Of a DNA stretch of 7,227 nucleotides, positions 1 to 2,564 are shown in pieces. The stretch lies in the IMG/VR virus record IMGVR_UViG_2681813318_000010; one strand, 5' to 3'. The notes beneath the pieces are model-generated. The model saw only the letters and a program-made list of their open reading frames with translations, made no database searches and was not told where the DNA came from. Source of the DNA: a virus. Lineage: Duplodnaviria > Heunggongvirae > Uroviricota > Caudoviricetes. Made by a program: the position numbers and the translations under genes. Every line of letters starts with the position of its first letter. Position 1 is the first letter of the stretch.

Positions 1-906
1 AACTGCACCATTCAACTGAAAGCCAGACGTAACAGCACCACGGTGGTGGTGAACACGGTGGCCTCTGAAAATCCGGATGAGGCAGGGCGTTACAGCATGG
101 ACGTCGAGTATGGTCAGTACAGCGTCACTCTGTTGGTGGAGGGATTCCCTCCATCACATGCCGGGACCATCACCGTGTATGAAGATTCTCAACCGGGGAC
201 GCTGAATGATTTTCTCGGTGCCATGTCGGAGGATGACGTCCGGCCGGAGGCAATGCGTCGTTTTGAACTGATGGTGGAAGAAGCGGCGCGTCACGCAGAG
301 GAGGCGAAGAAGAATGCCGGAGAGGCGGAGACATCAGCGAGGAATGCCGGCATATCAGCCAGTCAGGCAGAAGAGAGCGCTGCAAATGCTGACACTTCAG
401 CAGGGGATGCATCGGAGTCAGCCCGGCAGGCGGCAGAAAGTGCAGCCGCTGCAAAGCAGTCAGAGGAGGCGTCCTCGTCCTCGGCCTCTGCGGCCGCTCA
501 AAAAGCCAGTGAGTCATCACAAAGTGCAGCAGATGCTGAATTGTCAAGAAAGACGGCAGAAAGTGCAGCCGGTAATGCAGCCAGGGATGCAACGACCGCA
601 ACAGAAAAAGCCCGGGAGTCAGCAGAAAGCGCACAGTCAGCGGAACAAAGCAGGATAGCGGCGGAAGAGGCCGTAAACCGAATCCCCACCGTGGTGGGAC
701 CTCCCGGGCCAAAGGGGGAACAGGGGCCCGCGGGTCCTCAGGGGCCGAAGGGTGATAAGGGAGAGCGCGGTGACACCGGCCCTGTCGGGGCAACCGGCGA
801 ACGGGGACCGGCAGGTGATGCTGGTCCGGCAGGCCCGCAGGGGCCGAAAGGTGACAACTTACAGCCGTGTGTCGACTTTCTCCGGGGATTATCTCCGCGT
901 AACTGA
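1..906 (+). pseudogene. 5'-incomplete (window edge), divergent second copy of the side tail fibre gene; stf-like through 856, then the frame runs into lom-derived sequence and stops at 904-906
   Basis: Bases 1-856 align colinearly with 1305-2160 (offset 1304) with scattered substitutions, roughly 95% identity by eye. Translation [42 protein letters not shown]... matches the lambda Stf N-terminal region as I recall it. The frame is open from base 1; the ORF track start at 43 is an internal GTG. Confidence 0.65.
697..856 (+). repeat. Collagen-like Gly-X-Y repeat coding tract (copy 1, cut off at the stf/lom junction)
   Basis: Translation [53 protein letters not shown]; corresponds to 2001-2160 in the intact gene. 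Confidence 0.8.
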
Positions 907-1099
907 CAACAAGGGGAAAACGCACGATGTGCTGACCGGAAGTGATGACGGTCGCCACAGCAACACGTCTCTGGCGTGGGGGGCTGGCGTGCAGTTTAAC
1001 CCGACCGAATCCGTGACCATTGACCTTGCTTATGAAGGTTCCGGTAGTGGCGACTGGCGAACGGATGCATTTATTGTTGGTATCGGATACCGTTTCTGA
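857..1099 (+). pseudogene. lom: 3' fragment of a Lom/Ail/PagC-family outer-membrane protein gene (last ~80 codons), no start of its own
   Basis: Translation from 857: [80 protein letters not shown], stop 1097-1099. Matches the lambda Lom C-terminus from memory, including the terminal aromatic residue typical of beta-barrel OMPs. ORF-track bases 752-856 of this ORF are an out-of-frame overlap with the stf copy. Confidence 0.7.
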
Positions 1100-1204
1100 C
1101 AACAGACGCCGATTTATCTTCTGTAAATATTGTTATGATACGCAGGTTCATCCACCTTATGGGGTGAACTGCGTTTGAGGAAACGTAAAGTTACACTGTC
1201 CTGA

Positions 1205-1237
1205 AGCCCGTGGCGTCACTGCTGCGGGCTTTTTTTA
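1205..1237 (+). terminator. Putative rho-independent terminator between the lom remnant and stf
   Basis: agcccg...cgggct inverted repeat followed by a T7 run (ttttttt) at 1231-1237. The loop is long, so this is only moderately convincing. Confidence 0.4.
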
Positions 1238-1250
1238 TTGGTGGAAAAGT

Positions 1251-2564
1251 ATGACAGTAAAAATTTCTGGCGTGCTTAAAGATGGCACAGGAAAACCAGT
1301 ACAGAACTGCACCATTGTGCTGAAGGCCAGACGAACCAGCAGCACGGTGGTGGTGAACACGGTGGCCTCTGAAAATCCGGATGAAGCCGGGCGTTACAGT
1401 ATGGACGTTGAGTACGGTCAGTACAGCGTTATTCTGTTGGTGGAAGGATTCCCGCCGTCACATGCCGGGACCATCACCGTGTATGAAGATTCTCAACCGG
1501 GGACGCTGAATGATTTTCTCGGTGCCATGTCGGAGGATGACGTCCGTCCGGAGGCACTGCGTCGTTTTGAACTGATGGTGGAAGAAGCAGCGCGTCACGC
1601 AGAGGAGGCGAAGAAGAATGCCGGAGAGGCGGAGACGTCAGCGAGGAATGCCGGCATATCAGCCAGTAAGGCGGAAGCGAGCGCCGCAAATGCTGATACT
1701 TCAGCAGAGGATGCATCGGAGTCAGCCCGGCAGGCGGCAGAAAGTGCAGCCTCAGCAAAGCAGTCAGAGGATGCGTCCTCGTCCTCGGCTTCTGCGGCCG
1801 CTCAAAAAGCCAGTGAGTCATCACAAAGTGCAGCAGAAGCTGAATTGTCAAGAAAGACGGCAGAAAGTGCAGCCGGTAATGCATCCAGGGATGCAACGAC
1901 CGCAGCAGAAAAAGCCCGGGAGTCAGCAGAAAGCGCACAGTCAGCGGAACAAAGCAGGATAGCGGCGGAAGAGGCCGTAAACCGAATCCCCACCGTGGTG
2001 GGACCTCCCGGGCCAAAGGGGGAACAGGGGCCCGCGGGTCCTCAGGGGCCGAAGGGTGATAAGGGAGAGCGCGGTGACACCGGCCCTGTCGGGGCAACCG
2101 GCGAACGGGGACCGGCAGGTGATGCTGGTCCGGCAGGCCCGCAGGGGCCGAAAGGTGACAGGGGAGAGCGGGGAGAGACCGGTCTGACGGGAAATGCAGG
2201 TCCACAGGGTCCAAAGGGAGATACCGGTGCGGCAGGCCCGGCAGGCCCACAGGGACCGAAAGGAGAAACAGGTGCGGCTGGCCCGGTGGGGGCAACCGGA
2301 CCTCAGGGACCGAAGGGCGACCCGGGGGAGACACAAATCCGTTTTCGTCTGGGGCCGGCGAGCATTATTGAGACAAACAGCAATGGCTGGTTCCCGGATA
2401 CAGATGGCGCACTCATCACCGGACTGACCTTTCTTGACCCCAAAGATGCCACACAGGTTCAGGGGCTGTTTCAGCATTTGCAGGTCAGGTTTGGTGACGG
2501 GCCGTGGCAGGATGTTAAGGGGCTGGATGAAGTGGGCAGTGATACAGGCAGAACAGGAGAATGA
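1251..2564 (+). CDS. stf: Side tail fibre protein, short form (437 aa), with Ala/Ser/Glu-rich segment and collagen-like Gly-X-Y repeats
   Basis: ATG at 1251 preceded by ggtgga. N-terminus MTVKISGVLKDGTGKPVQNCTI...[28 protein letters not shown] matches the lambda Stf N-terminal domain (recalled). Stop at 2562-2564. Confidence 0.85.
   Translation: MTVKISGVLKDGTGKPVQNCTIVLKARRTSSTVVVNTVASENPDEAGRYSMDVEYGQYSVILLVEGFPPSHAGTITVYEDSQPGTLNDFLGAMSEDDVRPEALRRFELMVEEAARHAEEAKKNAGEAETSARNAGISASKAEASAANADTSAEDASESARQAAESAASAKQSEDASSSSASAAAQKASESSQSAAEAELSRKTAESAAGNASRDATTAAEKARESAESAQSAEQSRIAAEEAVNRIPTVVGPPGPKGEQGPAGPQGPKGDKGERGDTGPVGATGERGPAGDAGPAGPQGPKGDRGERGETGLTGNAGPQGPKGDTGAAGPAGPQGPKGETGAAGPVGATGPQGPKGDPGETQIRFRLGPASIIETNSNGWFPDTDGALITGLTFLDPKDATQVQGLFQHLQVRFGDGPWQDVKGLDEVGSDTGRTGE
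2001..2327 (+). repeat. Collagen-like Gly-X-Y repeat coding tract (~109 codons) inside stf
   Basis: Uninterrupted G-X-Y triplets from GPPGPKGEQ to [16 protein letters not shown] recurs four times; Pro/Lys/Glu-rich X and Y positions. Confidence 0.85.

Follow-up and report, generated by a model that had tools for sequence, protein, structure and literature searches.

A chimeric stf′::′lom joint upstream of an effector-carrying prophage region of Escherichia coli, probably an assembly mis-join

The end of the late region of lambdoid prophages, with the gene order J-lom-stf-tfa and followed by a cargo of effector genes, is well known from EPEC and EHEC strains, and we take this combination to correspond to what are called the "exchangeable effector loci" of their prophages. 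The DNA analyzed here (a stretch of 7,227 bp, hereafter the window) is of this type: its genes are familiar ones, known from the lambdoid J-lom-stf late region and from the effector cargo of EPEC/EHEC, and from position 1251 on its gene content and order are those of the nleB2-nleC′-nleH′-nleF prophage located next to yodB in many EPEC and EHEC strains, with 99.6–100% identity. It differs from these relatives in what precedes that region. Whereas they carry one stf gene after a complete lom gene, the window has, ahead of its stf gene, an additional 5′ fragment of stf and a 3′ fragment of a foreign lom.

Two further kinds of described system resemble the locus. Repeat-induced chimeric contigs, which occur in short-read drafts of multi-prophage E. 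coli, share with it a short contig bounded by repeats, segments matching different paralogous prophages perfectly, a break at a SNP fork, a homology-free junction with a stray base and absence from finished genomes; unlike in such contigs, the break on the lom side of the window (position 858) is not located at a known fork. Duplications or templated insertions arising by illegitimate recombination or template switching share with it a head-to-tail repeat, a novel homology-free joint and a period equal to the duplicated unit. The window departs from these in that two parental alleles are involved and in that the arrangement has no independent occurrence; as there are two parental alleles, a simple intramolecular duplication is excluded.

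Layout of the contig and its effector cargo

The window is the whole of contig CYDU01000056.1 from draft assembly GCA_001286065.2. Its first base lies within a tail-fibre gene of the multi-copy kind, and its last 98 nt belong to an IS66-family element. We refer to alleles of the lineage that carries the cargo as A-type and to those that match strain ML35 as B-type. Along the window, an A-type stf 5′ segment (1–856) is followed by one base, by a B-type segment comprising the lom 3′ end, the lom-stf spacer and the stf 5′ end (858–1905), by a stretch in which the A and B alleles are equal (1906–2160) and by A-type sequence from 2161 on. The late-region end of the lambdoid prophage occupies the window from 1251 on. 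All genes, remnants and sites from stf copy 1 to nleF are given on the + strand; neither tRNA nor tmRNA genes were found in the window.

The effector cargo of the resident prophage (3012–6169) comprises nleB2 (3012–3992), a truncated nleC (4026–4313), a tail-fibre-assembly remnant (4360–4470), a frameshifted nleH (4634–5545, with ORFs at 4710–5414 and 5411–5545) and nleF (5600–6169). About 100 complete E. coli genomes have a prophage adjoining yodB to which this region is 99.6–100% identical. About 96 codons of the truncated nleC are left, and the tail-fibre-assembly remnant comes immediately after them, an arrangement shared by complete genomes that points to an older, genuine recombination fusing two prophage ends. 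Complete genomes are likewise annotated with the nleH frameshift in their identical region; together with the truncated nleC, it indicates that the prophage cargo is decaying. A 45-nt direct repeat (2871–2915 and 4564–4608, 87% identical) is located about 100 bp upstream of nleB2 and about 70–100 bp upstream of nleH, both copies sitting after a tail-fibre-related remnant; it may be an element conserved at effector cargo modules, either as their boundary or for regulation, or else the scar left when two cargo regions fused at an earlier time. The IS66-family element end (ISCro1/IS679-like, 7130–7227, no strand assigned) corresponds to the terminal 98 nt of the contig, which stops inside this repeat. 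It is 99% identical to an ISCro1-like end and 96% identical to an IS679-like end in complete genome L002. In strain Z1323HEC0108 the corresponding point is free of an IS, and the insertion is therefore strain- or lineage-specific.

Origin of the two stf copies and of the lom fragment

Copy 1 of stf (1–856) is an A-type 5′ fragment that comprises about codons 19–303, is cut by the contig start and ends in the collagen-like tract. Copy 2 (1251–2564) is intact and encodes a protein of 437 aa. The initial annotation described 1–856 and 1305–2160 as a colinear pair of about 95% identity, and an ungapped alignment bears this out: 822 of 856 positions are identical (96.0%), with a start-to-start spacing of 1304. 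The substitutions had also been described as spread throughout the pair, which is not the case. All 34 lie within positions 1–601, where they number 10, 7, 3, 6, 5, 2 and 1 per successive 100 bp, while the 255 bp at 602–856 are identical to those at 1906–2160. At the codon level the copies differ in 31 positions, 18 of them synonymous and 13 non-synonymous.

The N-terminal prophage tail-fibre domain PF08400 (phage_tail_N) is recognized in both copies, in copy 2 almost completely (E = 1.1e-68, profile positions 1–133 of 134) and in copy 1 from profile position 19 to 133 (E = 4e-57), being cut there by the contig start. Copy 2 goes on to a complete Stf-like C-terminal part, with a Collagen domain (Gly-X-Y at residues 251–361) and PF06820 (Phage_fiber_C). 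Copy 1 has neither a complete tract nor a C-terminus; it ends within the collagen tract and acquires a 16-codon out-of-frame tail. Directly downstream of copy 2, an A-type gene (2566–2835) encodes a small tail-fibre C-terminal-domain protein of 89 aa (Pfam Phage_fiber_C; named after the annotation of Z1323HEC0108). The PF06820 C-terminal domain thus occurs two times, once where stf ends and once in the 89-aa gene, and a 41-nt repeat (2346–2386 and 2656–2696, 71% identical) reflects this. Close relatives of Stf range from about 350 to 498 aa, do or do not include a collagen domain, and end in either PF06820 or PF13884 (peptidase S74); this variation in length and modules indicates natural variability in the region that contains the joint.

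The lom piece between the two copies (858–1099) is B-type and consists of about 80 codons and a stop, preceded by neither a start codon of its own nor a signal peptide. It covers positions 120–199 of the 199 positions of the Pfam Ail_Lom profile (E = 1.7e-42). A full-length Ail/Lom barrel would have its own start, a signal peptide and profile positions 1–199, and full-length relatives are 199–207 aa long; the piece is a gene fragment. The B-type lom-stf intergenic region (1100–1250) includes a terminator-like hairpin (1203–1232) followed by a T run, and is 100% identical to that of ML35.

When the segments were aligned to related prophages, each could be assigned to a lineage. In 15 complete genomes, the nleB2..nleF prophage has an stf gene that is 100% identical to copy 1 over its 856 nt and lies immediately next to this cargo. 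Complete J and lom genes lie directly upstream of this allele in every complete genome inspected that carries it, and the relatives of the cargo-prophage lineage have a single, ordinary J-lom-stf arrangement. The initial annotation had a second stf allele taking the place of the 5′ part of lom; on a contig that begins within copy 1, this is at most a possibility. To the same lineage as copy 1 belong positions 2162–7129, which match it almost perfectly: 1906–7129 differ from strain Z1323HEC0108 (L001) by one mismatch and one gap in 5224 nt. The block 858–2160 is identical at 1303 of 1303 positions to strain ML35 only, the next best among the matches listed reaching 98.7%. Its ML35 counterpart is part of a normal J-lom-stf arrangement in a separate prophage, located next to potB and with nleB/espK as its cargo. 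The lom gene of the resident lineage is very different from the B-type lom of the window, and the 64-bp spacer of that lineage cannot be aligned to the B-type lom-stf spacer. Copy 2 of stf is accordingly a mosaic, B-type to position 1905, uninformative at 1906–2160 and A-type from 2161, these boundaries being set by the positions of mismatches against L001 and L003. In the gene-position index searched, the mosaic 437-aa Stf protein is recorded on CYDU01000056.1 only.

These identities bear on the age of the repeat. The claim that it is not a fresh duplication is upheld in the sense that the copies are different alleles, each 100% identical to a different extant prophage allele; for the same reason, the view that they are old paralogues which diverged in place is contradicted. 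An old tandem duplication of a lom3′-stf5′ unit in one phage, with the copies diverging in place to about 96% identity, would fit the head-to-tail arrangement and the period of 1304, which equals the length of lom3′ plus spacer plus stf5′. We consider it exceedingly improbable. In other genomes each of the two alleles occurs in a single-copy context, the differences are confined to positions 1–601 with none in the last 255 bp, and no intermediate or descendant was found in any collection searched. The allele identities effectively exclude such an origin. Nor do the copies derive from one parental sequence, as those of a genuine tandem duplication should, since the A and B alleles differ at 34 of the 856 sites.

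The joint at positions 856–858

The initial annotation placed the end of copy 1 exactly after GPQGPKGD, at 856, with the last approximately 80 codons of lom following in another frame, and this is confirmed, the lom sequence beginning at 858. The stf frame of copy 1 runs on past 856 for 16 out-of-frame codons to a stop at 904–906. ORFs of 82 aa and 269 aa are specific to the stf′::′lom joint. The breakpoint does fall within the Gly-X-Y tract, which extends over 2001–2333 in copy 2 and has its start at 697 in copy 1. Recombination between nearly identical repeats does not agree with the sequence of the joint, because homology of the collagen-like tract to lom amounts there to 1 nt at most and an orphan base lies in between. 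That base, the A at 857, fits neither parent: here the stf alleles carry G or T, and the lom gene of ML35 carries G. All 25 of the listed matches to the 858–2160 block begin at 858, and when a lom 91-mer with A at position 857 was compared with the lom copies of 5,426 genomes, none matched it exactly over its full length, the best reaching 98.9%.

The stf side of the joint coincides with a polymorphic position. Copy 1 ends one base before the only difference between the A and the ML35 B allele in the otherwise identical stretch 602–1006. The equivalent of copy-1 position 857 in copy 2 is 2161, with which a GGGG run begins; the window carries the A-type G there, and ML35 carries T. Searching with 91-mers for the two forms of this G/T site, we found the exact T form in 134 records and the exact G form in 672 of 722, with both forms present in some genomes; the site is a common polymorphism among co-resident stf copies. 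The GGGG run (2161–2164) is also a small variation hotspot, as Z1323HEC0108 has a 1-nt deletion there (L001 7563–7565) and its stf is annotated as frameshifted. On the lom side, the break at 858 is off any polymorphism in six related lom alleles, the nearest SNPs being at 842, 849, 864 and 882. A fork between lom_A and lom_B exactly at 858 was considered and rejected, as the two differ throughout.

The joint was then looked for elsewhere. A 200-bp probe spanning it had no place with at least 80% coverage in 5,426 complete E. coli genomes, in a search that would have merged two halves up to 600 bp apart, and none covered at 80% or more in 50,697 phage records. An exact 34-mer across the joint had no match in genome, metagenome and viral contig collections. 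Reproducibility in independent sequences, which is to be expected of a tandem duplication, was thus found in no collection searched. A protein homology search with the chimeric ORF gave no representative carrying the 16-aa out-of-frame tail, in a set clustered at 90% identity, in which one may be concealed.

A real, recent event between two prophages of one cell is a possible but unlikely source of this joint. It could have taken either of two routes. In the first, stf_A (856) would be joined illegitimately to lom_B (858), and a homologous crossover within 1906–2160 would then lead back to A; in the second, a single repair or template switch would copy about 1.3 kb of prophage B into a broken stf_A, with end joining and one added A. 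The outcome of both would be a truncated, out-of-frame Stf′-Lom′ remnant upstream of an intact mosaic stf. The allele identities agree with such an event, as both parental alleles are intact and extant and every block matches one of the two at 100% identity, which is what a recent event predicts. So does the arrangement itself, a valid single path in which copy 2 remains an intact ORF of 437 aa. Tail-fibre regions are moreover mosaic and variable in length (relatives of 350 to 498 aa), and a second tail-fibre-assembly remnant is present in the window at 4360–4470. Against it stand the need for two rare events or one exotic event, and the orphan base, which it leaves without explanation. The break would lie beside the sole base distinguishing A from B by chance, at roughly 1 in 30 to 1 in 400 (calculated from the ML35 mismatch density of 26/740 or from a single SNP in about 405 bp). 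Neither the 5,426 complete genomes nor the 50,697 phage records contain a similar order of stf followed by lom. RecA-dependent deletion should readily remove a direct repeat of 1.3 kb in which 255 bp are perfectly identical.

The second route, taken as a one-step repair in which a break in stf primes about 1.3 kb of synthesis on the stf-lom region of a co-resident prophage and homology-independent end joining adds one base, we regard as rather improbable. To our knowledge, E. coli has no Ku/LigD end joining, RecBCD degrades broken ends, and bacterial illegitimate junctions rarely carry filler bases; all three points count against a real event.

A contig mis-join as the probable source of the joint

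The stf′::′lom joint is probably a contig mis-join from the short-read assembly of a multi-prophage E. coli isolate. Misassembly had been put forward in the initial annotation as an alternative to recombination, and it is now the favoured reading in view of the orphan base, the coincidence with the fork, the draft status of the contig and the uniqueness of the junction. The isolate would carry a prophage A with the order J-lom_A-stf_A-nleB2-nleC′-nleH′-nleF, as well as a prophage B with a lom-stf region like that of the potB-site prophage of ML35. The presence of the separate prophage B in the strain and the software step that made the join are both what we infer. Complete genomes in which the cargo prophage coexists with a B-like lom-stf elsewhere on the chromosome include, for instance, EPSSH018 and 14EC007; two alleles in one strain are therefore ordinary, and the ingredients for such a mix-up are common.

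In this isolate stf_A and stf_B would be alike over about 400 bp save for the one G/T site, and the shared 255-bp stretch would collapse into one node of the de Bruijn graph. The 5′ piece of stf_A would end where the assembly graph forks, one base before the G/T site; copy 1 does halt at this fork, a place where a graph-based contig would stop. A second piece, 858–7227, would begin in lom_B, cross the shared stretch and pass into prophage A. The two pieces would then have been set end to end with a filler base, the A at 857, so that the apparent 1304-bp tandem duplication would amount to the shared stretch being used twice with B-specific sequence between. Single-base placeholders are, as we presume, introduced at negative-gap scaffold joins by SSPACE; a literature search gave no usable documentation of this, and we do not count it as evidence.

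Several points speak against a mis-join. De Bruijn contigs normally hold only sequence found in reads, which favours a real event; since a plain de Bruijn contig holds only read k-mers, the mis-join needs a postulated scaffolding, gap-closing or concatenation step. It is also not obvious that ordinary paired-end links would set the stf fragment directly upstream of the lom fragment, and if the joint were real, N1-N3-joint-N2-N3 would be a legitimate path through the graph. The break at 858 is not at a known fork, and no single k-mer size fits all ends: when one size was tried with the known SNPs for all segment ends (1, 856, 858 and 7227), no consistent k was obtained.

With the mis-join as the probable origin of the joint, the unusual tandem feature is most likely not biological. 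Tail-fibre and lom genes are present in up to a dozen near-identical copies per EPEC/EHEC genome, and draft contigs can splice alleles of different prophages. Apparent duplications, chimeric genes and mosaic fibre proteins from such contigs need read-level support before they are catalogued as phage recombination or host-range variation, and the 437-aa mosaic Stf is an example of a protein that calls for such caution. A real joint would be a minor and probably neutral rearrangement of an effector-carrying prophage that has already decayed, and its interest for sequence exchange among prophages would be modest. If it had arisen by one-step repair, it would show that templated insertion between E. 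coli prophages occurs naturally.
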